DNA from: Gemmatimonadota bacterium
GTDB lineage: Bacteria > Gemmatimonadota > Gemmatimonadetes > Gemmatimonadales > GWC2-71-9
DNA length: 64,000 bases
Direction of reading: 5' to 3'
Assembly: GCA_036679605.1 (NCBI GenBank)
Contig: JAZDCZ010000291.1
Location: forward strand, 1-64,000
Positions 27,188 through 40,824 of this stretch are shown piece after piece (the first letter of the stretch is position 1; each line of letters begins with the position of its first letter). A program made the position numbers and the translations under genes. Under the pieces are notes generated by a model that was not told the DNA's origin, ran no database searches, and saw only the letters and a program-made list of their open reading frames with translations.

Positions 27188-28549
27188 ATGAAGCGCTCGA
27201 TGATGCTGCTGGCAATACTGGTGGGTTCCCCGGTCGTGGCTCGAGCGCAGTCGGGTCCGCCGCCGGGTCGGATGCGGTTCGCGTTGGTCGGTGATGCGAT
27301 CTTGAGCCGGCGGCTCTCACCTTATGAGGAGCCCGGGTACCTGGCGATGATCGAGATCGTTCGCGGCGCCGATGCCGCGTTCGCTAATCTCGAGGTGCTG
27401 TTTCGCGATCGCGGGGATGGTTATCCAGCTACGCACAGCGGAGGGACATGGATGTCCGCCGAGCCTGCGCTGGCCGGTGAGCTGGTATGGGCCGGGTTCG
27501 ATCTGGTCAGCCGTGCAAACAATCACACGATGGACTACGGCGTAGGAGGCCTACGTGCGACGACTCGGGCGCTGGATGCGGTGGGTCTGGTGCACGCTGG
27601 TGCAGGCGACAATCTTGCCCGTGCCCGCGCTCCGGCGTACCTGGAGACCGCGTTAGGGCGTGTGGCGCTGATCTCGGTCGCGTCGACTTTCTCTGACGAA
27701 GATCGGGCGGGTCCCCAGCGTGCGGACCTAAGAGGAAGGCCGGGCTTGAGTCCGTTGCGCTACGACGCGACTTACGTATTGACTTCGGAATCTCTCTCCA
27801 AGCTTCGTGAGGTCGCAGCGGAGGTGGGAATCCGCACGGGCACCGGTGACCGCATGCGCTTCCTGGGGCGACAATTCGAGGTCGGCGATCGACCCGGAGT
27901 GCGCACTGCACCGAACGAGCACGATCTCGCACAGATAGTAGCTGCCGTGGGAGAGGCCAAACGCCAAGCCGACTGGGTGATCGTAACGAGTCACACTCAC
28001 GAGAGTGCGGGAAGTCGCGAAGTTCCAGCTGAGTTTCTTGTGACGTTCGCGCACGCCGTGGTGGACGCAGGTGCAGACATGTTCGTCGGGCACGGTCCCC
28101 ACGTGCTACGCGGCGTCGAGATCTACGAGGGTAAGCCGATCTTCTACAGCCTGGCGAACTTCATATTCGAGAACGAAACGATCCGGTTTCTCCCTGGAGA
28201 CATTTACGAGCAGTACGACTTGCCTGCGGACGCAAACCCGGCCGACCTGTTCGACCGCCGCACGGAGAGTAGCCGGACCGGCGGTTTCCCCGGTCAGCGG
28301 ATGTTCTGGGAAAGTGTGATTGCCGTGCCAACGTTCGAAGACGGTGAACTAGTTGAGTTGAAGTTCCATCCTATCACGTTGGGGTTCGGCAAGCCGAGGC
28401 CGCAGCGTGGTCGGCCCGTTCTGGCGGGTCCCGAAGACGGGAGACGGATTATCGAACAGCTAGCCGAGTTGTCTCGACCGTTCGGTGTATCGATCCGGTA
28501 TGTGAGCGAGGAGAACGTTGGGGTCATGGCAGGAAAGGCCTCGCGCTAG
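27188..28549 (+). CDS. CapA/PgsA-family metallophosphoesterase-fold protein
   Basis: VGD, ANLE, ANNHTMDYG, GHGPH and IFYSLANF; signal peptide from ATG 27188. Confidence 0.88.
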   Translation: MKRSMMLLAILVGSPVVARAQSGPPPGRMRFALVGDAILSRRLSPYEEPGYLAMIEIVRGADAAFANLEVLFRDRGDGYPATHSGGTWMSAEPALAGELVWAGFDLVSRANNHTMDYGVGGLRATTRALDAVGLVHAGAGDNLARARAPAYLETALGRVALISVASTFSDEDRAGPQRADLRGRPGLSPLRYDATYVLTSESLSKLREVAAEVGIRTGTGDRMRFLGRQFEVGDRPGVRTAPNEHDLAQIVAAVGEAKRQADWVIVTSHTHESAGSREVPAEFLVTFAHAVVDAGADMFVGHGPHVLRGVEIYEGKPIFYSLANFIFENETIRFLPGDIYEQYDLPADANPADLFDRRTESSRTGGFPGQRMFWESVIAVPTFEDGELVELKFHPITLGFGKPRPQRGRPVLAGPEDGRRIIEQLAELSRPFGVSIRYVSEENVGVMAGKASR

Positions 28550-28604
28550 TGAGCTACACGGGTTGCGTGCCGGCTTACCTGTAGCGATCTTTTTTCGCCT
28601 TCTA

Positions 28605-28678
28605 GCCCCGCTAGCTCAACTGGCTAGAGCAACTGACTCTTAATCAGTAGGTTCGGGGTTCGAGTCCCTGGCGGGGTA
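28605..28678 (+). tRNA. tRNA-Lys(CTT)
   Basis: Acceptor GCCCCGC/GCGGGGT; anticodon arm ACTGA-CTCTTAA-TCAGT; T loop TTCGAGT. Confidence 0.96.
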
Positions 28679-28969
28679 CTGTCATCCCAATGTGCTTGTG
28701 CTCCTTGCTTTGCCAGAGGGGGACGTATCGGGGTTCACGAACGGCCGCTTGTGGGCGGCCGTTTGTGCGCTCGCTTCGGCTCAATCGCTTTCGCGATTTT
28801 CCCTCAGCTCCGCGTCAAGTCCCTGGCGGGGTACTGTCATCGCAACATGTTTGAGCTCCTTGCCTTGTCGGAAGGAGACGTATCGGCGTTGATCTGCGCG
28901 AGGGCTTTGCCCGTACTCGATCCGCTCTTCCCACCCCAACACCTTACCCCTCGCGTCGAGTCTCTGGCG
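28662..28969 (+). repeat. Tandem tRNA-Lys 3'-end repeats with T-loop inserts
   Basis: About 70 bp at 28662-28731 is repeated at 28817-28886. T-arm halves TCGGGGTTC and AAGTCCCTGGCGGGGTA are separated by an 80-bp insert. A decayed third unit ends at 28969. Confidence 0.85.
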
Positions 28970-29010
28970 ACCGCCCTCGCCGACGGCTCCAGTTGCGGTA
29001 GCATCCCGTC

Positions 29011-29748
29011 CTATACGGGCGTTACGACGCCGTTCTCGCCTGGTGATTTGAGGCGGTTGATGGGTCGTTGTTGCGCCATCACGCGTTCGGCGAAGTCGAG
29101 CCGTTCGGCAAGTTCCGCCAGCTGACCGGCGTTCTCGGCAAACTGCTGCGCTTGCCGATCGCGCATCTCCGCAAATCGCATTTCAATCAACTCTTCGGCG
29201 TCCGCAAAGCGCGACGCCACGGCTGCGAGCCGGTTCACGTCTTCCGCCTGGAGGCGCGGAGCACGCGAACGCTGCGGCAGGAGACCGAACGCCACAAGGG
29301 CGCGTCGAGGGAGCTTGGCCACGAACTCGAGGGCCGTGATAGCGTAATGGAACGGATTGACCGTTCGAGCCAGGGCTGTGAAGCGGGTGGCCTCGTATAC
29401 GCCCAATGCCATGTCGATGATATCGAGGATTTCCTGGTCCGCGCCGTCGGCATACCGGGAGTGGAAGATGTTCCGGAGGACCGCGACATCCATCCGCACG
29501 GTCGGGCCGGGATCGGTGACGTTGGCAGTCGCTGCATCCAGTCCGGCGGCGTGCACGACCTGGATTACGCGCGGCAGCATCCGGTTGATCTCTGAACGGG
29601 CACTTTGCGCTCCATCCCAGTCCACCAGCAGGTCGTCCGCAACGTAGCCGGCACGCTCGAAATAGGTCTCCACCAGCTCGCGGAAGCGGCGGAGATCTCG
29701 CGATCGTTGGCGGTTTCTGAAGATCGTAAGCTTGTTGCAGGGTATCAT
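29011..29748 (-). CDS. Hypothetical protein with a C-terminal coiled coil
   Basis: 245-aa ORF with SD-like AGGA upstream; terminal LAELAERLDFAER. Confidence 0.65.
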   Translation of the reverse strand: MIPCNKLTIFRNRQRSRDLRRFRELVETYFERAGYVADDLLVDWDGAQSARSEINRMLPRVIQVVHAAGLDAATANVTDPGPTVRMDVAVLRNIFHSRYADGADQEILDIIDMALGVYEATRFTALARTVNPFHYAITALEFVAKLPRRALVAFGLLPQRSRAPRLQAEDVNRLAAVASRFADAEELIEMRFAEMRDRQAQQFAENAGQLAELAERLDFAERVMAQQRPINRLKSPGENGVVTPV

Positions 29749-29905
29749 GGTGTCCTGGACGAGAAAGAGTGTTCGTGGGTTTCAACAGCGGCTACTCGCC
29801 GCAGCCCCCACGGCTCGTATGTCCCTATGCCGGCCGGTGTTCGACCCTGCACTGGTGTACAGCTCTATGCGCTCAATTACCTCAAGCGTAATATACCGCA
29901 ACAAG

Positions 29906-30043
29906 TTTCTCTTCAACAACTTCTAGTTTTTGACGGGCGCCTTATGGCGTGGCCATTCGTGGGGCCCCAAATGGGACCCCAAATCCCTCGCACCTCGCAC
30001 TTTCTGGCCGGGCCTTGCATCTTCTAGCCCCATGACCGAAATC
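29906..30043 (+). repeat. About 140-bp leader repeat, with a second copy at about 35376-35518
   Basis: Both copies share TTTCTCTTCAACAACTTCT, TGGGACCCCAAA, CACCTCGCACTT and CTTCTAG..ATGAC. Confidence 0.8.
29995..30023 (+). promoter_or_regulatory. Putative leaderless promoter, copy 1
   Basis: TCGCAC-N17-CATCTT, with ATG 8 nt downstream (30032). Confidence 0.6.
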
Positions 30044-30676
30044 ACGTCCAAGCTTCCAGTGCCCTCGCCGACCGCTACCGTATCGAGCCACTTGGGCGAA
30101 GGTGGCATGGCGACGGTTGACCTGGTGCACGGTGTGAAGCACGACCGCTATTCACGATGGGACTCATGTCGCCGAGTTGCTGGAGTCACCGTGGCGCTGA
30201 CCGTTATGATGGCCTGTGCCACCTCGACACCTCCTTCCCTCACGCCGCTGGCCACACTTGAACACACAGAGGCATGGATTACCGAGTGGCTGCCGCGGCT
30301 GGCATCCGGTCGCATCCTCCGAGGAGAGATTGTCACGATACTGACCGTGACTGATGTAAGCGTTAAAGAGTGCGAGGTTCGCTTCCGCATGATCTGGGAT
30401 GCCGAGTTAGTAGTGGGGCCAGACGCCGGGCCCATCGGCCCGGGAACTATCCGAGAGGAGAGCTTCTCATGGGCCGAGGTCAGTACGATCAGCATCACAC
30501 AGTCGGAGGCGTCCGATGGCTTGGTCGGGATCAGTTTTGCCCTGCCGGGTGAAAAGACGGTCGACATCATTGCGTTCTCATTCGCCGACGCGCTCGCGAA
30601 CGCCTTTCGCCACTCACGGGACATGTGCCGAGCGCCGGTCTCTTCCGAGGATCTGAAGGCGAAGGTGGGGAATTGA
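30032..30676 (+). CDS. Chimeric ORF: kinase 5' stub + unknown putative lipoprotein + kinase 3' stub
   Basis: Begins MTEITSKL...HLGEGGMATV, contains VALTVMMAC (lipobox-like) and ends EDLKAKVGN. Confidence 0.7.
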   Translation: MTEITSKLPVPSPTATVSSHLGEGGMATVDLVHGVKHDRYSRWDSCRRVAGVTVALTVMMACATSTPPSLTPLATLEHTEAWITEWLPRLASGRILRGEIVTILTVTDVSVKECEVRFRMIWDAELVVGPDAGPIGPGTIREESFSWAEVSTISITQSEASDGLVGISFALPGEKTVDIIAFSFADALANAFRHSRDMCRAPVSSEDLKAKVGN

Positions 30677-33327
30677 CCGAGATCACGTCCAAGCTCTCGA
30701 ACGCCCTCGCGGACCGCTACAAAATCGAACGCCACTTGGGTGAAGGCGGCATGGCGACTGTCTACCTCGCGGAGGACTTGAAACACGAGCGTAAGGTTGC
30801 GCTCAAGGTATTGAAGCCCGAACTGGCTGCCGTTCTAGGTGCCGAGCGCTTCGTGCAGGAGATCAAGACCACCGCCAATCTCCAACACCCGCACATTTTG
30901 CCGCTGTTTGACAGTGGGACGGCGGGAAGGCGGGAAGGCGGGACGGAGTTCCTCTACTATGTGATGCCGTTTATCGACGGCGAGACGCTGCGCGACAAAC
31001 TCAACCGCGAAACACAACTCGGTATCGAGGAAGCGGTCCGCATCACCTGTGATGTCGCCGACGCGCTGGACTATGCGCACCAGCAAGGGGTGATCCACCG
31101 CGACATCAAGCCGGAGAACGTCCTGCTTCACAATGGCCGTCCGATGGTAACGGACTTTGGGATCGCCTTAGCGGTGAGCGCTGCGGCCGGCGGACGGATG
31201 ACCGAAACCGGACTCTCGCTCGGCACGCCGCACTACATGAGCCCCGAGCAAGCAACCGCCGAGAAAGACCTCACTGCGCGGTCGGACATTTACTCCCTCG
31301 GCAGTGTGCTCTATGAGATGCTGACTGGAAGCCCACCGCACGTCGGTTCGTCAGCGCAACAGATCATCATGAAGATCGTCGCGGAGGATGTGCAGCCCGT
31401 CACAGAGTTGCGGAAGTCGGTGCCGCCCCATGTAGCCGCCGCCACGACCAAATCGTTGGAGAACTTAGCGGCGGATCGGTTCGAGAGTGCGGCGAAGTTC
31501 GCGGAGGCGTTGACCAACTCCGCCTTTGTGTTCAACAGTGTCACCAGGATGCAGGCGACGCGTCCGTCCTCGGCGGGAACACAGAACCGCACCGCCGTCG
31601 CGTTTGCTGCATTATCAGGCGTACTTGCGCTCCTGCTTGGGCTGACGGTGCTGGGACAACCCAATGCGAACGTTTCCGACGTTGGCGTTGCCCGGTTCCC
31701 GCTGGTCGGCAATCCGAATTTCCGAATCAACACTGGCAGCACACAACCGTTCGCCATCTCGAGCGACGGTGGGACGATCATATTCGCGGCGGATACCGGC
31801 AACGGCATGCATCTGTGGGTCAGAACGCTCGCCGATCCAACGCCTCGGATGCTCGAAGGGACGGACCGGGCGACCCAGCCGGCAATTTCGCCCGACGGCG
31901 AGTGGATCGCGTTTGTCGTCGACAATCACATCATTCGCAAGGCACGGCTCGACGGCGGCGGTGTGGAAGAGGTCGCATCGATTGACAATATCTCGGCGTC
32001 GGTCAGTTGGGCGTCGTCTGATGAGATTCTTTTCGAGTTGATCGGCATCCCCGACGGTATTCATCGCGTAAGCGCGTTCGGCGGCCGCCCTGAACTGTTG
32101 ATCCCATTGGATACCACGATAAGTGAGGTTCGCCACCGACGCCCCTTTGTCCTTCACCACGAGCGTCGCGTGCTCTACGCAAGTATGTTGGCCGACGGCT
32201 CGTGGAGTCTCGCGATTTTTTCTCTCGACGACGGCCGACGCACACGTCTCGGGATCGACGGGATTCAAGCGCTCGGGGTGCTCGATGGCCATCTCGTGTA
32301 TTCGCGCGACGACGGGGCGCTGATGGCCGTTCCGTTCGACGTTCGGGGCATGCGAACGCGTGGAGATCCCCGACAATTGCGCGATCGCGTTTTGAGCAGC
32401 CCCACAGGTACGGCCGTGATTCTGTCCACCAATGGCAACCTCGTGTATCGCGCCCCGGTGGCCCAGCCCATGCGACTCTTCTTGGTCGATAGCGCAGGAT
32501 CCCTGACGCAACTCGGCACGTGGGTTCGCCCATTCGACACGCCCCGTTTCTCCCCAGATGACCGTTATGCCGCCGTGACGATTGCCGACGAAGGCGACAC
32601 GCAAGACCTCTGGATCGTGGATCGCGCAACTGGGGAGGCCACGCAGCTCACGCGGGGGGCACAGGCGCACCTACAAGATTGGACGCCGGACGGCTCGAGC
32701 CTCATATACTCCGAGGGCCGGGTACTCTGGACCATTCGCATCGATGGCAGCGGCGGACCGCGCCGAATAACAGCAGTAGAAGGCACCATCAGGGGGGCCT
32801 CGATCATGCCCGACGGCGCCTCGATCATCGTATCCCACTCGGACATCGGGACGCTCACCGAAGAACTCGTTCGGGCGTCGCTACTGGACAGCTCCGTTAC
32901 GCCCATCGGTTCGGCGGGTCGCCTGCGACCCTTCTTTCCACGAGTTTCACCCGACGGGCGCTGGGTCGCATACCATGGTCGCAACGACCGGGAAGTACAC
33001 ATCAGTTCGATCGATAGTGCTGGACGAGTACAAGTGTCCGATGCGGGCGGGTACGCACCGATCGTGTGGGGACCTAACAGTGACCGGGTGTACTACCACA
33101 CCTCTGCTGGGATCACGGTCGCCGAGATACGTACCAACCCTCGACTCGCAGTCGTCAGGCGTCGTGAGCTGCATGGATTTCCATTCTTCAGCACGGTGCA
33201 CGACGTGACTGACGATGGCAGGACGTTCTTGGTGGTGGCACCCGTGGGTGGGGGAAACGAGGACATCCTCGTCGCACTCAACTGGGGATCGGAGGTCCTG
33301 GCGATGCTGCGTAACCAGAACGATTGA
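30673..33327 (+). CDS. Ser/Thr protein kinase - TM - PD40/TolB-like beta-propeller
   Basis: GEGGMATV, VALK, HRDIKPEN, DFG and GTPHYMSPEQ; SPDG repeats. TTG start overlaps the upstream TGA. Confidence 0.92.
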   Translation: MTEITSKLSNALADRYKIERHLGEGGMATVYLAEDLKHERKVALKVLKPELAAVLGAERFVQEIKTTANLQHPHILPLFDSGTAGRREGGTEFLYYVMPFIDGETLRDKLNRETQLGIEEAVRITCDVADALDYAHQQGVIHRDIKPENVLLHNGRPMVTDFGIALAVSAAAGGRMTETGLSLGTPHYMSPEQATAEKDLTARSDIYSLGSVLYEMLTGSPPHVGSSAQQIIMKIVAEDVQPVTELRKSVPPHVAAATTKSLENLAADRFESAAKFAEALTNSAFVFNSVTRMQATRPSSAGTQNRTAVAFAALSGVLALLLGLTVLGQPNANVSDVGVARFPLVGNPNFRINTGSTQPFAISSDGGTIIFAADTGNGMHLWVRTLADPTPRMLEGTDRATQPAISPDGEWIAFVVDNHIIRKARLDGGGVEEVASIDNISASVSWASSDEILFELIGIPDGIHRVSAFGGRPELLIPLDTTISEVRHRRPFVLHHERRVLYASMLADGSWSLAIFSLDDGRRTRLGIDGIQALGVLDGHLVYSRDDGALMAVPFDVRGMRTRGDPRQLRDRVLSSPTGTAVILSTNGNLVYRAPVAQPMRLFLVDSAGSLTQLGTWVRPFDTPRFSPDDRYAAVTIADEGDTQDLWIVDRATGEATQLTRGAQAHLQDWTPDGSSLIYSEGRVLWTIRIDGSGGPRRITAVEGTIRGASIMPDGASIIVSHSDIGTLTEELVRASLLDSSVTPIGSAGRLRPFFPRVSPDGRWVAYHGRNDREVHISSIDSAGRVQVSDAGGYAPIVWGPNSDRVYYHTSAGITVAEIRTNPRLAVVRRRELHGFPFFSTVHDVTDDGRTFLVVAPVGGGNEDILVALNWGSEVLAMLRNQND

Positions 33328-33438
33328 CGCTGTCAAGATCCGTGATCTAACGGGAACTTGGGCACATTCTTGGGCACATCGACCCGGCAAACACACGCAA
33401 CTAGACGTAGGCCCCGCGCACAGGGCTTGCTCGAATCC

Positions 33439-33467
33439 TCGCCAAACCCCGCATCGCACCCCATCTT
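33439..33467 (+). promoter_or_regulatory. Putative leaderless promoter, copy 2
   Basis: TCGCCA-N17-CATCTT, with ATG 6 nt downstream (33474). Confidence 0.6.
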
Positions 33468-33473
33468 AGCCCC

Positions 33474-33608
33474 ATGACCGAGATCACCTCCCGGCTCTCG
33501 ACCGCCCTCTCCGACCGCTACCAGATCGAGCGCCGTCTCGGCGAAGGCGGAATGGTGACCGCCAATCCGATTTGGGCTGCGGGGCACCGGTGGGTCGACC
33601 GGGAGTAG
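33474..33608 (+). pseudogene. Kinase 5' stub (44-aa ORF)
   Basis: MTEITSRLSTALSDRYQIERRLGEGGMVT followed by unrelated sequence; it stops 8 nt before the next ATG. Confidence 0.85.
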
Positions 33609-33616
33609 CTGTGAAC

Positions 33617-35176
33617 ATGCCATTGACCATTGCTTCCGCGATTGTCTTGACCGCCGTTCTGGTCAGCGGGTGCGGACGAGGAAACAACAACGCCGGCGAC
33701 GGCGGGTCCACGATCACCGTTCTCTACGAAGGCGACGACTTCCTTCTTGGTCCCGCGGGAGATGACAGCCCAAAGTTCCTCGTGTTCCTTCCGCTGGTGC
33801 GAGGCTATGGGTCCGAGGCCCAGCCAAGCCTCGCCGAGCGCTGGGAGCACTCTCTCGACTACACGACCTGGACCTATCACCTGCGCCGTGACATCCGCTG
33901 GCACGACGGCGCGCCGGTTACTGCGCACGACATCGCGTTCTGCATCCGACTCTTCGCTCACCCCGATGTCCTCTTTGCTCAGGGCCAGATTGTCGGGGCT
34001 GACGCCACGGCCCTGGACGACTACACGCTCCAGATCACGTGGCAGAACCCCACGGGTCCGGCGGGTGCACTGTCCGGCTGGACGGTCTATTATCCAAAGC
34101 ACCTCTTGGAAGGACTTGACCCACAGGATTTCTACACCTTGGATTTCTGGACCAGCCCAATTGGCAACGGACCGTATCGGTACGTTCGGCACGTCCCGCA
34201 GACGATGATCGAGTTGGAGGCGAATCCCGATTACTACGCAGGACCGCCGGCGATCGAGCGCGTCGTGCTCAAGCTGAGCACGGCGAACAAGGTCATCGAA
34301 CTCACGAGCGGGAACGCAGACGTTGCGTACTATGTCCGTCCCGTTGACATCCTCAAGCTCCGCGCCGAGCCCGAGTTCCGAGTCTATCATCTGTTCGCGT
34401 TTAGTGAACCCCAGGCGATTCACTGGAACCAGCGACACCCGTTGCTTGCCGACTCGCGCGTTCGTCAGGCCCTCTCTCATGCGATCGATCGGCGGGAGCT
34501 CTCACGCGTGAACAATCTTCCGGACGAGATGCCTTTGGTGGGTGGCTTGTCACCAGAGGATCGCAGCGATCGACTCTACCGAGAGGGCAAGCTCGACGCG
34601 GGTCCTTCGTACGATCCAACCGCTGCGAGGCAACTCCTCGATGAGGCGGGCTGGGTCGATCGCAACGGCGACGGCGTACGCGAGCGAAACGGAGTCGCGG
34701 CCCGGTTCACGATGATCGTTCAGCAGGGCCGCCTCAGCGCTGTGGAATCGGCGGTGTTCATCCAAGACCAGCTCCGGAGGGTGGGTGTCCGGATGGAGAT
34801 CCGGCCGGTGGACCGGAGCGTATGGCACAACGTCTATCGCGCGGCCGATTTTGACGCCACGATCGGGGACGTCCCCAACGTGCCCCAATGGCTCCTTGAT
34901 CGCGACTTCTTCGGTGAAGGAACCAGGATCGGATACCGCAATCCCGAGATCGTGCGGTTACTGGAGACACTGACCACCGAGTTCGATCCTACCGTTCAGG
35001 ACACCCTCTACGCTCAGATCAACGAGATGCTCCGCCGCGACATGCCCGTCACGTTTCTGTTCCCGTATGTCGAGTCCATTGTGGCACACCGCAGGATCCA
35101 AGGAATTCGCACGCCAGAAAGGGCGAACCTCCTGTCGTACATTGCGGACTTGTGGATCGAAGAGGACCGCCGCTAG
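33617..35176 (+). CDS. ABC transporter substrate-binding lipoprotein, family 5 (peptide/nickel)
   Basis: Lipobox VSGC; LAERWEHS, WHDGAPVTAHD, PIGNGPY and VRQALSHAIDR. Confidence 0.9.
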   Translation: MPLTIASAIVLTAVLVSGCGRGNNNAGDGGSTITVLYEGDDFLLGPAGDDSPKFLVFLPLVRGYGSEAQPSLAERWEHSLDYTTWTYHLRRDIRWHDGAPVTAHDIAFCIRLFAHPDVLFAQGQIVGADATALDDYTLQITWQNPTGPAGALSGWTVYYPKHLLEGLDPQDFYTLDFWTSPIGNGPYRYVRHVPQTMIELEANPDYYAGPPAIERVVLKLSTANKVIELTSGNADVAYYVRPVDILKLRAEPEFRVYHLFAFSEPQAIHWNQRHPLLADSRVRQALSHAIDRRELSRVNNLPDEMPLVGGLSPEDRSDRLYREGKLDAGPSYDPTAARQLLDEAGWVDRNGDGVRERNGVAARFTMIVQQGRLSAVESAVFIQDQLRRVGVRMEIRPVDRSVWHNVYRAADFDATIGDVPNVPQWLLDRDFFGEGTRIGYRNPEIVRLLETLTTEFDPTVQDTLYAQINEMLRRDMPVTFLFPYVESIVAHRRIQGIRTPERANLLSYIADLWIEEDRR

Positions 35177-35242
35177 TGGACAGCCCCACCTCGAGCCGCC
35201 TTAGCACAACTCAAGGACTCTCACCGAAACCGGCGTCCATAA

Positions 35243-35362
35243 ACTCTTAATCAGTAGGTTCGGGGTTCACACGCTTCCGCGTCCGCGCAAGCGTGTGCGC
35301 TCGCTTCGGGTCGGCCGCATCCGCGGCCTCGCTCAGTTCCGCGTCGAGTCCCTGGCGGGGTA
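35243..35362 (+). repeat. tRNA-Lys 3'-half copy (att-like) split in the T-loop by a 77-bp insert
   Basis: ACTCTTAATCAGTAGGTTCGGGGTTC and GAGTCCCTGGCGGGGTA are identical to the tRNA at 28636-28678. Confidence 0.92.
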
Positions 35363-35469
35363 TTCCGGTAAACACTTTCTCTTCAACAACTTCTCGTTTT
35401 CGACTGTCGCACTTCGGAGCAGCCGTTTGCCGTTTGAGACCCCAAGTGGGACCCCAAACTCCGCACACC

Positions 35470-35518
35470 TCGCACTTCCTCGCCGAAACTCACACCTTCT
35501 AGAGCGATGACGGACATG
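35470..35518 (+). promoter_or_regulatory. Putative leaderless promoter, copy 3, with a highly decayed kinase stub
   Basis: TCGCAC-N17-CACCTT; ATGACGGACATG at 35507 aligns with ATGACCGAAATC. Confidence 0.45.
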
Positions 35519-35760
35519 GTGAGACATAGCTGATACTCCCGTGTTATCGTGGCCCTTTCAACGGCCGCCACTCTTGCGAGCATGTGTACCGCGCTTCATA
35601 GTCAATCCTAATATTGGAGACATCTACGCCGGTGGTCCTGGGACCCCGCCGCCGTACTGACGCCGTGTAGGACGCCCCGTAGGACGCCCCGCTAGACGCC
35701 CGCCCGACGACGCGACCCCTCCCAGCCACCGGTGATCATCACGCCTGGAGGGTGGGAACT

Positions 35761-38712
35761 ATGATCCGCTTGTGTCGCGTCGCGCTCGGCCTTGTCCTCG
35801 CAGTGTCTGCACCGTCCGTCGCCACGGCGCAGAGCGACACCGACGGCTGGCGCACGATCGAGTTCGAGACGAGCCAGGTCACCGCGCCCGACATCGCGAT
35901 CACGCCCGACGGCCAGTCGCTGATCTTCACACTGCTCGGGCACCTGTTCCGCTTGCCCGTCGAGGGTGGTGAAGCCGAACAGCTCACCTGTGTTCTCGCA
36001 AGACGGCAGCCGGGTGGCATTCATCTCCGATCGGGACGGGAGCGAAGGCAACGTCTTTGTTCTGGAGCTAGCCGATGGGCAGATTGCGCAGGTCACGCAC
36101 GAAGTCTGGGCGGGCCGGCCCATCTGGTCTCCTGATGGCGAGGAGATTGTGTATCTGCGGTTCCTGCGTGACGTATCGGGGCGGTTCTTTGTACTCTCTG
36201 AAGTGCGCCGGGTTACCCTGCGCACAGGAGTGCTGGAAACCGTCAGTGCTACCGCGCGGGAGTTCGGCTCGGTCTTCTATCTGCCGGATGGCCGCTTAGC
36301 GTGGACCATCATCGAGCGCCAGGCTCAGATTGGATCTCCCCGTGCAACCACACGGATCGAGGTGGTGAATCTGCAGGGCGCGGTCTCCCCGCTGCGCACC
36401 GTTGAGGGCGTCGTGCACCGTGTCGTACCGAGTCCCACCGACGGTGGTCTCTATTATCGGCGCTATTTACAGTTGAGCGACCTATTGCTTCAACCGGAAG
36501 GTTTGCTGTTCGTGCCGCTCCCCGAGGGTGACGAGCGACAAATCGTATCCGTGTCGAGCTGGCACTTTTGGTGGTGGAGGCCGCGATTTTCGGTGGCCAG
36601 CGACAACAGGACTCTATATGTGGGCGACTCGGGGCGGCTGTGGAAGATTGCGCTGCCCAATGGTGCCCGCGAACCCATTGCATTTCGCGCCCGTGTTCAA
36701 CAGGACCTTCAAGACCCGGTGCGGCCACCTAGATGGGAGGCGACGGCACTTGGAGGCTCGGCGGCGCCGCGCACCGTCTTGCACCCCAGGCTCTCGCCGG
36801 ACGGCCGCAGGCTGATCTTTGGAGCGGCTGGCTTTCTCTGGGAGCAATCCCTCGGCTCCGGTCAGGGTGCACCATCGGGTGGCGGACAGGCGACGCGACT
36901 GTTTCAGGGGAATACGTTCGAGCAAGCCCCTGCTTTTTCGCCCGACGGACGGCAGTTGGCATTCGTTCGCAGCGAGGATGGCGAACGAGAAGTCAGAGTC
37001 TTCAACTTCGAAAACCGACAGGAGCGCACGCTGGCTTCTGGGCTGCGGTATGGGCAGCCAAGCTGGACTCGCGACGGGGAGCGGCTCGTCTTCACCGAGT
37101 TTGCATCCGGGAACGCTAGCCTAGTTGCCGTGGTAGCTGGTCGCGCCCGCACCTCTCTGCTGACGGGGAATCGCTTTACTACTCGGCCAACCTAACCGGC
37201 ACCAGGACCCTCTACCGCCTCCCGCTGAAGGGAACCGCCAATCCGCAGCCGATCACGCAACTGGCGCGCCACCTGAACGACGGTCTCGTCTCCCCGGATG
37301 GGAAATGGCTAGCCTTCCGGCGCAACAGTGAAATCTGGGTAGCGTCCCTTGGTACCGAGCCCGTCGATGAGACCGACATCCATCAGCTCAGCCCGGACGG
37401 GGGCGACAGTTTCGACTTTACCGCCGACGGCTCGGCGGTGATCTATTCCGCCGGTAACCGCGTGTGGCACCACCCACTTGGGGTCGGCGAGTCGGAGGAG
37501 ATACCCATCCGGCTGGAACTTCAGCCCCCCATGCCGCCCTCTGTGCTGGTGCGGCGGGTGCGCGTGCTCGATTTCGACGCGGGCGGCTTTGGTCCGGAAA
37601 CTTCTCTCTTCATCGAGCAGGGGCGCATCCGCTGGATTGGCCCTCAACGTGGACGACGGGTTCCACGCGAGACCGTCGTTGTCGACGGAGGTGGCCGATT
37701 TGCCATACCCGGTTTGTTCGACGCGCACGTGCACAACATCGGAAGTGATCAGGCTGCCTTTCTGGCGTATGGCATCACCTCGGTGCGCGACCCAGGCGGC
37801 GGACTTGCCCACTTGAACACGATGGCGGATCGAGGTGAAACCACCGGCGATCCCGGGCTACGCTACTTCTTCTCGGGTGACGTTTTCCACGGCGCCCAGC
37901 CGTTTTTCAGTGGGTTGCTCCAGATTGTCAACGAAGGCGAAGCTCGAACCCATGTGCGCCGCTGGAAGGAACAGGGCGCCCAGTTCATGAAGGTCTATAC
38001 CGACCTGCCCTGGCCGTTGCAGCGGGCGGTGGCGGAGGAAGCCCGACTGCTGGATCTGCCCGTAGCTGGGCACGGGATGAGTGTGGAAGAAATTACCAAG
38101 AGCGTGACCCTGGGATACGCTGTCTTGGAACATGTCAGTATGAACCATCGCCTCTACGACGACGTGCTCCAGATGCTGGCCGCCGCGGGCACGCGGTGGG
38201 ACCCGACGCTGGGGGTGCTGGGAGGCAATGACTTGTTGCTGCGGGAGGAACCCGAACGCCTTGCGGACGCGAAGTTGCGGGCATTCGCCTCGGCGCAGGC
38301 CCTGCGCGCCGCCCGGATCGGCTGGAACATCATAGGGACCAAAGTCTTGCGGGGGTATGTGTTCGAACAGCTCGCGGGAATCCGCGCCGCCCATCGGCGG
38401 GGCGTCAAACTCTTAGCGGGAACCGACGCTCAGCCAGGGAGTCTAGTCGGGTCGTCCCTCCACTGGGAGCTGGAACTCTTTGCCCAAGCCGGGCTGCCGC
38501 CACTGGACGTGCTCCGCATCGCCACCCAAGAGGCGGCAGCGGCCGTTGGCGCGGAGGACGACCTCGGCACACTCGAGGTCGGCAAGCTCGCCGACATCGT
38601 GCTGCTCGATGCGAATCCCTTAGAGGACATCAAAAACACGCAGACGATCTGGCGCGTGATCAAGGGTGGGTTCGTGTTCGATCCGGAGGAGTTACGACCG
38701 GAGCGGAACTAA
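35761..38712 (+). pseudogene. PD40/TolB-like propeller + amidohydrolase fusion, frameshifted at about 35990 and 37130
   Basis: Signal peptide and PD40 repeats run across three frames; C-terminal PGLFDAHVH, AGTD and GTLEVGKLADIVLL. Confidence 0.8.
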
Positions 38713-38880
38713 CCCGCGAGAATAGAACAGGCCCGGCAGGACTCATCGTGTTAGCGGGAAACCGCGGAGCCGGGCTTTGGCAAAACTCTTTCAATGCACA
38801 TTCATGCACACGAGAGGGTTTTCGAGGGGTGACAGACCAGGGTCGGATAGCGAAAAGCCCTGTCTGACGGGGGTTCTGGA

Positions 38881-38973
38881 GTGGCCAGGGGTGGAATTGG
38901 TTGCGAAGCAGACGCGAGTGGGGTTGTGGCGGGGGGAGGACGTCAACCACCGACACGAGGATTTTCAGTCCTC
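38881..38973 (-). repeat. tRNA-Phe(GAA) 3'-half fragment split in the T-loop by a 45-bp insert
   Basis: The minus strand reads GAGGA-CTGAAAA-TCCTC GTGTC GGTGG TT [45 nt] CAATT CCACC CCTGGCCA. Confidence 0.8.
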
Positions 38974-39177: not shown

Positions 39178-39183
39178 AGCCCC

Positions 39184-40824
39184 ATGACCGAGATCACGTC
39201 CAAGCTCTCGACCGCCCTCGCCGACCGCTACAAGATCGAACACCGAGTCGACGTGTCACTTTCGATGAGGCGGCTCATGGGATTGGCGGCGATTCCCTTG
39301 ATCGCCAGCCTATGCCTCGGGTGCTCGTCGGCTGCTGAAGATCCGGACCGCAGCTCGACGATGACCATCCTCGCGGATCACAGCGACAAGACCATCAATC
39401 GCTACCAGACGAAGTTCCTGCTGTGGCTTCCACTGGCAAGCGGCCCGGAGTGGGCAGACGAATTCGAAGCAAGGCGTCGGCTCGCCGAATCGTGGGAACA
39501 CTCTCCGGACTATCGCACCTGGACGTATCACCTACGGGACGACGTGCGGTGGCACGACGGCGTTCCTGTCACCGCGCACGATGTGGCGTTCAGTCTCGAT
39601 CTGTTCGGCCACCCCGATGTGCTGTTCGCTGCGGGCGGCGGCTTGGCGTCCTTGATCGATTCGATGTCCGTGCCCGACGACCACACGCTCACGCTGGCTT
39701 TGACGATGCCGGCCTACCTGGGCGGCATGGGTTGGACGGTCTACTTTCCTAGACATCTGCTCCAGGACCTCGACCCCGCCGATTTCTACGAGTGGGACTT
39801 CTGGACGCGGCCGGTCGGCAACGGCCCCTACCGCTTCGTGCGGCATGTTCCAAAAACGGTGCTCGAACTCGAGTCGAACCCGGACTTTTACGCCGGGGAG
39901 CCAGCGATCAAGCGGGTGTTGGTGAAGTTCAGCAGCGCGAACCCGGTCATCGAGCTGACGAGCGGCACCGTGGATGTCGCTTCCAATATTGGGCCGACCG
40001 CTGTGTACCGGTTCAGAGCCGATCCCCGGTTCGTGGTCTACCACCGGTACGACTGGTCCGAGCTGCAGCTCATTTACTGGAACCAGCGCCACCCGCTGTT
40101 CGCCGAGGCCGCAGTTCGATTGGCGCTGAGCCACGCGATCGATCGGCGCGGAATCGCGCAAGCGATGGACTTGCCTGATGAGATGCCATTGATTGGCGGA
40201 CTGTCGAACCAGGTTCTGGGAGACCATCCGTATACACGCAGAGGGTGGGATCAGGGTCCGGCCTACGATCCTGCGACGGCGAAACGGCTCCTGGATCAGG
40301 CGGGCTGGATCGACAGCGACGGGGACGGGATTCGCGAGAGGGATGGCCGGGAGGCGCGTTTCGCCCTGTTGGCCAGGCGCGGACGGTACCCCGCTGCCGA
40401 GGCACTGGCGCTACTCATTCAGGATCAGTTGCAGCGCGTGGGAGTCTCGACCGAGATCCGCTCGATGGCAGGTGGCCTCGCCCGGGACGCGATCCGCTCG
40501 GGCGACTTCGATGCGGCGATTAGCTGGTTAGTAGACCAAGATCCGCTTGATGTCCTCGAGGAATGGTTCGGCGAGCCCTTGCCCTTCGGATACTATGACG
40601 CGGAAGCCGCGCACCTGCTCGAGGCAATCGGCGCGGAGCCCGATCCCAACGCCCAGGATACTCTCTACTCTCGGATCAACGAGATTTTCCGCCGCGACAT
40701 GCCGGTCACGTTCCTCTTCCCCGGGCTCGAGAACAACGCTTCCCACCGCCGGATCCAGGGATTCCACCCGAACCTGTTTCTGCACTTTGCGGAGGAGCTT
40801 TGGATCGAGGAGGGGAACCACTGA
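39184..40824 (+). CDS. ABC substrate-binding lipoprotein, family 5, fused in frame to a kinase 5' stub (native ATG 39265)
   Basis: MTEITSKLSTALADRYKIE, then MRRLMGL...CLGC lipobox; paralog of 33617-35176. Confidence 0.9.
   Translation: MTEITSKLSTALADRYKIEHRVDVSLSMRRLMGLAAIPLIASLCLGCSSAAEDPDRSSTMTILADHSDKTINRYQTKFLLWLPLASGPEWADEFEARRRLAESWEHSPDYRTWTYHLRDDVRWHDGVPVTAHDVAFSLDLFGHPDVLFAAGGGLASLIDSMSVPDDHTLTLALTMPAYLGGMGWTVYFPRHLLQDLDPADFYEWDFWTRPVGNGPYRFVRHVPKTVLELESNPDFYAGEPAIKRVLVKFSSANPVIELTSGTVDVASNIGPTAVYRFRADPRFVVYHRYDWSELQLIYWNQRHPLFAEAAVRLALSHAIDRRGIAQAMDLPDEMPLIGGLSNQVLGDHPYTRRGWDQGPAYDPATAKRLLDQAGWIDSDGDGIRERDGREARFALLARRGRYPAAEALALLIQDQLQRVGVSTEIRSMAGGLARDAIRSGDFDAAISWLVDQDPLDVLEEWFGEPLPFGYYDAEAAHLLEAIGAEPDPNAQDTLYSRINEIFRRDMPVTFLFPGLENNASHRRIQGFHPNLFLHFAEELWIEEGNH

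Follow-up and report, generated by a model that had tools for sequence, protein, structure and literature searches.

A two-hairpin insert at one position of tRNA T-loops in Gemmatimonadota

Why should two tRNA-Lys sequences of one contig be interrupted at the same place of the T-loop by short, structured pieces of DNA? The question was raised by a 64,000-nucleotide stretch of the genome of a Gemmatimonadota bacterium (assembly GCA_036679605.1, contig JAZDCZ010000291.1, positions 1 to 64,000, forward strand), here called the window. A preliminary description, made from the sequence alone, had reported two inserts between GGGGTT(C) and RAGTCCC, each built of the same four parts, and inserts, parts and position are present as described. 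We put the probability at roughly 0.6 that they are copies of a non-autonomous element, mobilised in trans, which acts as a folded antisense single-stranded DNA (ssDNA) and is joined by the foot of its second hairpin at position 55/56 of the tRNA sequence.

Anatomy and fold of the element

The element unit measures 76-79 bp in the two copies of the window and, in all ten copies aligned, consists of a hairpin, H1, which abuts a long imperfect hairpin, H2, without a spacer. Copy 1 of the window (28736..28814, + strand, 79 bp) comprises H1 at 28736-28767 and H2 at 28768-28814, copy 2 (35268..35343, + strand, 76 bp) comprises H1 and an H2 of the zipper type described below, and each is followed by one extra T. 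They scored 81 and 90 bits, respectively, with a covariance model for which both served as training sequences. The left flank of copy 1 is a piece of tRNA-Lys extending from the variable loop to T55 (28728..28735, + strand), and that of copy 2 is a displaced, attR-like tRNA-Lys fragment extending from the anticodon loop to T55 (35243..35267, + strand). On the right, TC and the tRNA-Lys 3′ end follow (28815..28834 and 35344..35362, + strand). Both inserts fold better than shuffled sequences, with z values of -4.3 for the copy at 28736 and -3.1 for the copy at 35268.

That the stems change while pairing is kept, as proposed earlier from the two inserts, holds over the ten copies: 13 of the 26 pairs change on both sides, and 94.6% of the cells pair in a structure that was defined by the analyst from the same ten sequences. 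None of 500 shuffles reached as high a value, and slid controls gave 23-49%. The first inserted base is the start of H1 and covaries with the last base of H1 (C-G in six copies, G-C in four). It is therefore not a duplicated C56, and the 2-bp TC duplication suggested at first shrinks to a single extra T. The segments listed in the preliminary description as linker and tail pair with each other and form the base of H2; the four parts are real, the separation of these two as unpaired parts is not.

H2 begins with CGC and finishes with GCG, and in between stems of 2-4 bp alternate with TC opposite TC. This zipper fits all 15 long copies selected by the analyst, with the register one step off in three of them, and its stems covary (GCT/AGC, TGT/ACG, GC/GC, GCGT/ACGC). 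On the antisense strand the TC/TC loops read GA/GA, and at the end of several short variants stands the complement of the mini-hairpin GCGAAGC. Tandem G.A mismatches form sheared pairs, and as DNA the GCGAAGC mini-hairpin is very stable. With DNA energies 13 of 16 copies, and with RNA energies 11 of 16, folded better as the antisense than as the sense strand, the margins being small. The fixed TC/TC zipper, GA/GA on the antisense strand, points to a folded ssDNA as the substrate.

A search of 28400-35800 against Rfam, extended to E 10, returned just the tRNA and two weak unrelated matches, and no family for the inserts. This bears on the possibility, which we consider very improbable, that the insert is a spliced tRNA intron or a processed RNA insert. 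If the insertion point is read as T54/T55, the insert is preceded by U and ends in G, in keeping with the group I boundary rule, and the one Ser(TGA) gene found in 2.2 Mb of sequence from the genome G219 is interrupted; group I introns do occur in T-loops of transfer-messenger RNA (PMC11915505). However, those introns average 293 nt in the same source, whereas the inserts measure 15-80 nt. No intron matched in Rfam up to E 10, neither the P3-P9 catalytic core nor a P1 guide was found, and no guide pairing follows the exon sequence. Most hosts are dead fragments without a 5′ half, and the G219 sequence covers 2.2 Mb only.

Insertion site, dimer and layouts

At the insertion site T54-T55-C56 of the T-loop becomes TT[H1H2]TC. 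The right junction is near-constant (GCGTC in 25 of 34 copies), whereas the left side is variable: a script tallied TTGA in 17, TTCA in eight and other sequences in nine of the 34, several of the last group being parsed 1-3 bases off. The specificity for tRNA-Lys assumed at first was not borne out, since inserts lie in fragments of about ten tRNA types. The source genome contains at least 21 T-loop inserts, two of them found after 19 had been tabulated; the tabulated ones interrupt fragments of Lys(CTT), Lys(TTT), Phe, Leu, Met, Asn, Ile, Arg, Pro(GGG) and Pro(TGG). For every tRNA type that is interrupted, the 95 genes called include an intact one, a census that only this genome allowed. The Lys(CTT) and Lys(TTT) copies are identical at 58 of 77 positions despite differing T-arms, and near-identical units occur in different tRNA types.

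Most inserts were found with a split-tRNA script, from whose 32 'split' rows 13 and one composite were kept and 18 were dropped as chance matches. The same script found nine uninterrupted displaced tRNA fragments, and interrupted fragments outnumber intact displaced ones in this genome. The covariance model gave three strong matches here and one at E 7e-5.

The target bias persisted when target bases were left out of the search. A target-free pattern of five TC steps of the zipper matched six sites in 6.7 Mb, of which five were followed by TCGAG and the sixth by T and a second element. The same pattern with GA, CT, AG, AC or GT gave 1, 1, 0, 0 and 0 matches, and three shuffled genomes gave 2, 0 and 0. 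Every full copy obtained without target bases lay in a T-loop, as the preliminary description had expected of a T-loop preference, and among the 2391 GGTTCRA sites of the genome those found carrying an insert were all tRNA-derived. There was one exception to the loop position: a tRNA-Pro(GGG) fragment has a family member at GGGGTT/CAG in the anticodon arm and another in the T-loop, and the subtype found in the anticodon arm sits in the T-loop of a relative (L117). This exception indicates that sequence, not loop shape alone, guides the cut.

On contig C113 two different units, of 77 and 78 bp, lie head to tail in a single Leu T-loop with one T between them. Such a joint is to be expected if a module of unit length inserts repeatedly at the same phosphodiester, and the dimer shows that the junction created by one unit can receive another. 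The unit-T-unit junction is also the one expected of an excised circle.

Three layouts were distinguished. In layout A, H1 is joined directly to TT, in displaced fragments or in full-length spare genes (the copy at 35268; L018; C419:140304). Layout B, which leaves the gene intact, comprises a replacement 3′ end with a terminator-like hairpin, then an H2-like tail. Layout C consists of an intact gene, a hairpin, a fragment starting from the variable loop, and an A-type unit; examples are the window at 28659-28957 and, with a left flank laid out like that of copy 1, L009, L084/L085, L065 and contig C334. The window example starts from an intact tRNA-Lys(CTT) gene (28605..28679, + strand; ARAGORN, Rfam tRNA 65.4 bits) and a spacer after its 3′ end (28680..28727, + strand), which is repeated after 28834. 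It is a tandem of two layout-C units, identical at 62 of 77 positions over the whole flank, with element subtypes that differ.

The second unit of this tandem carries copy 3 (28891..28955, + strand, 65 bp), a GATC-type H1 with a C-rich H2, and after it come TC and a truncated piece of a tRNA 3′ end. It had been noted before as a decayed third insert. The insert is there, but its H1 is intact and identical at 26 of 34 positions to the copy on contig C334, and copy 3 looks like a sister subtype, not a decayed copy. A fourth insert had been overlooked: in a tRNA-Phe(GAA) fragment running from the anticodon arm to the 3′ end (38880..38973, - strand) the T-loop is interrupted at about 38901-38944 by a C-rich insert of 44 bp that belongs to the wider family and has near-identical counterparts on contig C419. 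Adjoining the Phe fragment, a tRNA-Trp 3′ fragment (38727-38790, - strand) starts exactly at position 57 with a hairpin tail before it; both tRNA genes lie far away. This piece is probably another member of the wider family.

Nine tandem units, eight of them aligned, repeat the 3′ end of the tRNA from position 57 on, in an attP-like manner. They would fit a reading in which the inserts are scars of tyrosine-integrase islands whose crossover took place in the T-loop and whose genes have since been lost, as would the 35 tyrosine-recombinase matches in the genome and the T-loop crossover subsites reported for tDNA islands (Islander, PMC4383910). Islands of this kind share the gene class and the T-loop/junction subsite with the element, and units with a replacement 3′ end resemble minimal islands. 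Unlike them, the element has no integrase, measures 15-80 bp, crosses tRNA types and usually leaves its target unrestored. Compared with the islands of PMC4383910 and bioRxiv 2020.11.02.365908, the direct inserts have neither integrase nor restoring fragment, and the tandem units have the fragment only. Direct inserts of unit length, without a replacement 3′ end, common to several tRNA types and able to form a one-T dimer have already weakened the island-scar reading, to which we assign a low probability.

Further unusual tRNA sequences were recorded in the same genome (G000). Tandem 5′ tRNA fragments lie upstream of the intact tRNA-Pro(GGG) and tRNA-Met genes (G000:C401:29923-30288 and G000:C173:161056-161226); structured inserts of other kinds interrupt them in the anticodon arm or D-loop. 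Seven tRNA-shaped genes that resemble Leu genes, have long variable arms and unusual anticodon loops and are called Val or Ala by ARAGORN are found at C88:41720, C91:339, C93:53116, C154:43677, C162:10477, C214:86437 and C401:16998; most are followed by a similar GCCGCA..TTGACT stretch, and related sequence in the relative L112 carries the element. Dense arrays of divergent tRNA genes, unlike the host set, occupy G000:C343:60648-61513, 115276-115819, 131701-132387 and 149092-149584.

Copies in other genomes and comparison with known systems

A target-free pattern of linker and tail, run on two public collections of genome and metagenome contigs, gave 59 loci in 55 distinct contexts. Both hairpins were present in seven contexts, each of which proved to be a T-loop insert, the host sequence being tRNA-Lys or tRNA-Ser. 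All four public records that bear a name and carry the element belong to Gemmatimonadota, and one of them has a near-identical tRNA-Lys gene. The covariance model without target bases, run on two draws of 150 relatives, gave four matches outside this genome: two were full copies located in T-loops, a third was a partial copy and the fourth lay in coding sequence. The model scored 31 candidates per genome, and 4 of 151 genomes is a floor.

An end pattern matched in 40 of 401 genomes of the phylum. The 30 loci that were read comprised four full T-loop inserts outside this genome, one partial insert, one own copy and 24 background matches. With a short right-junction pattern 10 of 121 genomes had matches, a tally that includes G248, whose matches were unread and on which no other result rests; 11 of the 14 matches were read, seven being in tRNA-fragment context (one doubtful) and four background. 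A strict pattern had no match in 40 relatives, a loose target-free end scan gave 237 candidates, mostly chance, and three scans of viral contigs yielded 0, 0 and 9 matches, the nine all background. Blastn of copy 2 against plasmid and phage collections found none, and a 17-mer searched in the 401 phylum genomes matched nine other genomes, none with the element. The element is real and reproducible across the phylum at low frequency.

Two sets of related sequences were noted. In L097, L098 and L099 (around 1490-1545) a sister family has a conserved hairpin that shares the 17-mer with the element linker, with no tRNA flank and no Rfam match. In L067 (around 1500-1720), close to a tRNA-like 3′ fragment, a partial H2 arm runs into a repeat of the GTCATCCTGAG type; this may be a link to repeat families that flank small GIY-YIG genes.

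Does the element belong to a known system? IS200/IS605 elements have a subterminal hairpin with guide bases and a target of 4-5 nt only. Here both hairpins begin at the junction, with no room for a guide, and full copies were found in tRNA sequence only, among 2391 GGTTCRA sites in the genome. No Y1 gene is bordered by these hairpins, as would be expected of a non-autonomous IS200/IS605 or RAYT-type repetitive extragenic palindromic (REP) element; the genome has five Y1 matches, and the flanks of the four plain ones carry other repeats. Target rules of IS91-type elements are at odds with the TTG left junctions. The layout of a miniature inverted-repeat transposable element (MITE), considered in the preliminary description, is absent: there are no terminal inverted repeats, the ends belonging to two separate hairpins, and one T is extra.

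Like the element, integron attC sites have purine-rich unpaired bases on one strand. A gene-less cassette would have the topology of the element, an H1 whose start pairs with the inverse core, and a folded site. The RYYYAAC/GTTRRRY boxes, present in both attC sites of this genome, are missing from the element, which has a bulged T at the junction and a tRNA target. Mitochondrial double-hairpin elements likewise have two adjacent GC-rich hairpins and are short and mobile without a gene of their own; they belong to organelles and show no restriction to a single tRNA position.

CGTC-tagged REPs are short GC-rich palindromic repeats with CGTC at one end and no dedicated transposase known; as described by Di Nocera (2013, PMC3733652), the tag begins a single short stem with a CCA tail, dimers are frequent and copy number is moderate to high. 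In the element CGTC spans the 3′ junction, its last C being tRNA C56, the two hairpins are unlike, copies are few and there is one target site; the six zipper sites are all T-loop-type junctions, not dispersed extragenic repeats. The element thus fits none of the REP families compared. It behaves like REP or double-hairpin elements, and its construction is that of an empty integron cassette. It is apparently undescribed in the literature searched, which excluded subscription papers and supplements; PMC9897764, in its accessible part, treats tRNA fragments without such inserts.

Mobilisation, neighbourhood and implications

In the mechanism that we favour the substrate would be the antisense strand folded as ssDNA, in which TC/TC reads as tandem G.A pairs. 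An enzyme acting in trans would cut the antisense strand at 55/56 and join the H2 foot there. The joining would proceed by one-strand exchange, the partner being an excised dumbbell circle in which H1 and H2 are stacked and one base is bulged, or else by target-primed copying. An insertion that hits a live gene would survive solely when a replacement 3′ end comes along, so that copies would accumulate in displaced island fragments and in short gene-restoring tandem units. T-loop targeting, lack of autonomy, a conserved fold and a likely ssDNA substrate are thus retained from the preliminary description; an HUH enzyme, also suggested there, would be no more than a candidate. For the structured RNA that would inactivate spare att sites, the other possibility raised there, the strand asymmetry is less favourable, as it points to the antisense strand.

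Several results weigh against this reading. The 17 window ORFs (open reading frames) and 70 ORFs near other copies, the nearest of 241 around 20 other loci, include no transposase, recombinase, GIY-YIG or reverse transcriptase (RT) gene, and therefore none of the Y1/RAYT, IS110 or tyrosine recombinases that had been thought likely nearby. This genome has no small GIY-YIG gene, and those found in two of five other carrier genomes are not at tRNAs. Integron integrase is present in three and RT in two of these five carriers, and the single-contig G146 has neither. Among the public-contig matches listed, no excised circle and no empty allele of these exact sites was seen. RNA energies, too, favour the antisense strand in 11 of the 16 copies, and energy cannot tell DNA from RNA. 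Finally, two weak model matches (G030 and the partial G076) are not T-loop inserts, and the status of a true copy was decided by eye from the hairpins.

The genome does contain two integron integrases, whose attC sites are unlike the element and neither of which lies beside a copy. Between two element units at the tRNA-Lys of L009 a GxxExxY nuclease gene (1707-2117, - strand) is found with short repeats of its own. As a mobiliser it was rejected, the two such genes of this genome lying elsewhere.

Homing offers another route, which we regard as unlikely: a small GIY-YIG nuclease (Ssn-like) or a similar one would cut tRNA loops, and repair would copy the hairpin module in, the element being the empty arm of a cassette of nuclease and replacement tRNA. 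This genome does contain units that combine a replacement 3′ end with a terminator-like hairpin, and the Ssn paper (Chenal 2025, PMC11893778) reports nucleases that cut ssDNA strand-specifically next to hairpin repeats. With the Ssn system and its SRM and NTS repeats the element shares hairpin DNA as a likely strand-specific substrate, and repeats without a classical transposase. It differs in having no NTS consensus and no ssn gene flanked by the repeat, and the word tRNA is absent from the main text of that paper. A small GIY-YIG gene was seen neither in this genome nor beside tRNAs in the five carriers, and spread among tRNA types with unlike flanks demands more than homologous repair.

A shade more doubtful than homing is an RNA intermediate, in which transcripts of interrupted tRNAs would be reverse-transcribed at a T-loop nick by R2/SIDE-like target priming, variable stops giving the differing left ends. 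A precise right junction with variable left layouts, fragments that begin around positions 41-48 and full-length interrupted tRNA genes (L018; C419:140304) agree with it, as do 12 RT matches in this genome. Yet no tRNA and no element end lies close to any of the 10 RT loci examined, three of five carriers have no RT match, and the conserved non-canonical pairs are on the antisense strand.

Returning to the folded antisense ssDNA, a bolder form of this reading can be advanced only tentatively. The element may represent a new, minimal class of mobile DNA, a covalently closed ssDNA dumbbell of ~77 nt with a tandem G.A zipper, exchanged into the universal TTC of any tRNA T-loop. Sister forms would carry a replacement 3′ end, and the system would be integron-like, with the T-arm as landing pad.

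The sequence between the interrupted tRNA-Lys copies (28958-35242) looks like island cargo, including a kinase and a solute-binding protein. An arm-like repeat occurs at 29894..30005 (+ strand) and, after the tRNA-Lys fragment, at 35370..35481 (+ strand); the two are identical at 87 of 112 positions and are putative integrase arms. A 245-aa ORF (29011-29748, - strand) has no family match, and its Atlas match is an unnamed, mostly Gemmatimonadota cluster; the ERLDF.ER motif at its C-terminus also ends small ORFs adjoining elements in L050 and L085. Starts of a local Ser/Thr kinase gene family are repeated at island junctions (28958-28990, 30040-30130 and 39180-39260), which suggests many partial deletions. 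A public contig matches 28649-29452 with no differences and may come from the source sample; the 35268 copy is uncovered among the listed pieces.

By splitting att repeats, the inserts may lock islands in. Since interrupted fragments outnumber intact displaced ones, island finders that need contiguous tRNA fragments would misplace island ends. Our reading calls for an enzyme, so far uncharacterised, by which folded DNA is inserted at one T-loop base common to all tRNA genes, an activity that would amount to compact site-specific integration with a near-universal target. The sharp anatomy of the element, with its single-T junction, dimer and GA zipper, offers defined oligonucleotide substrates for finding this enzyme.

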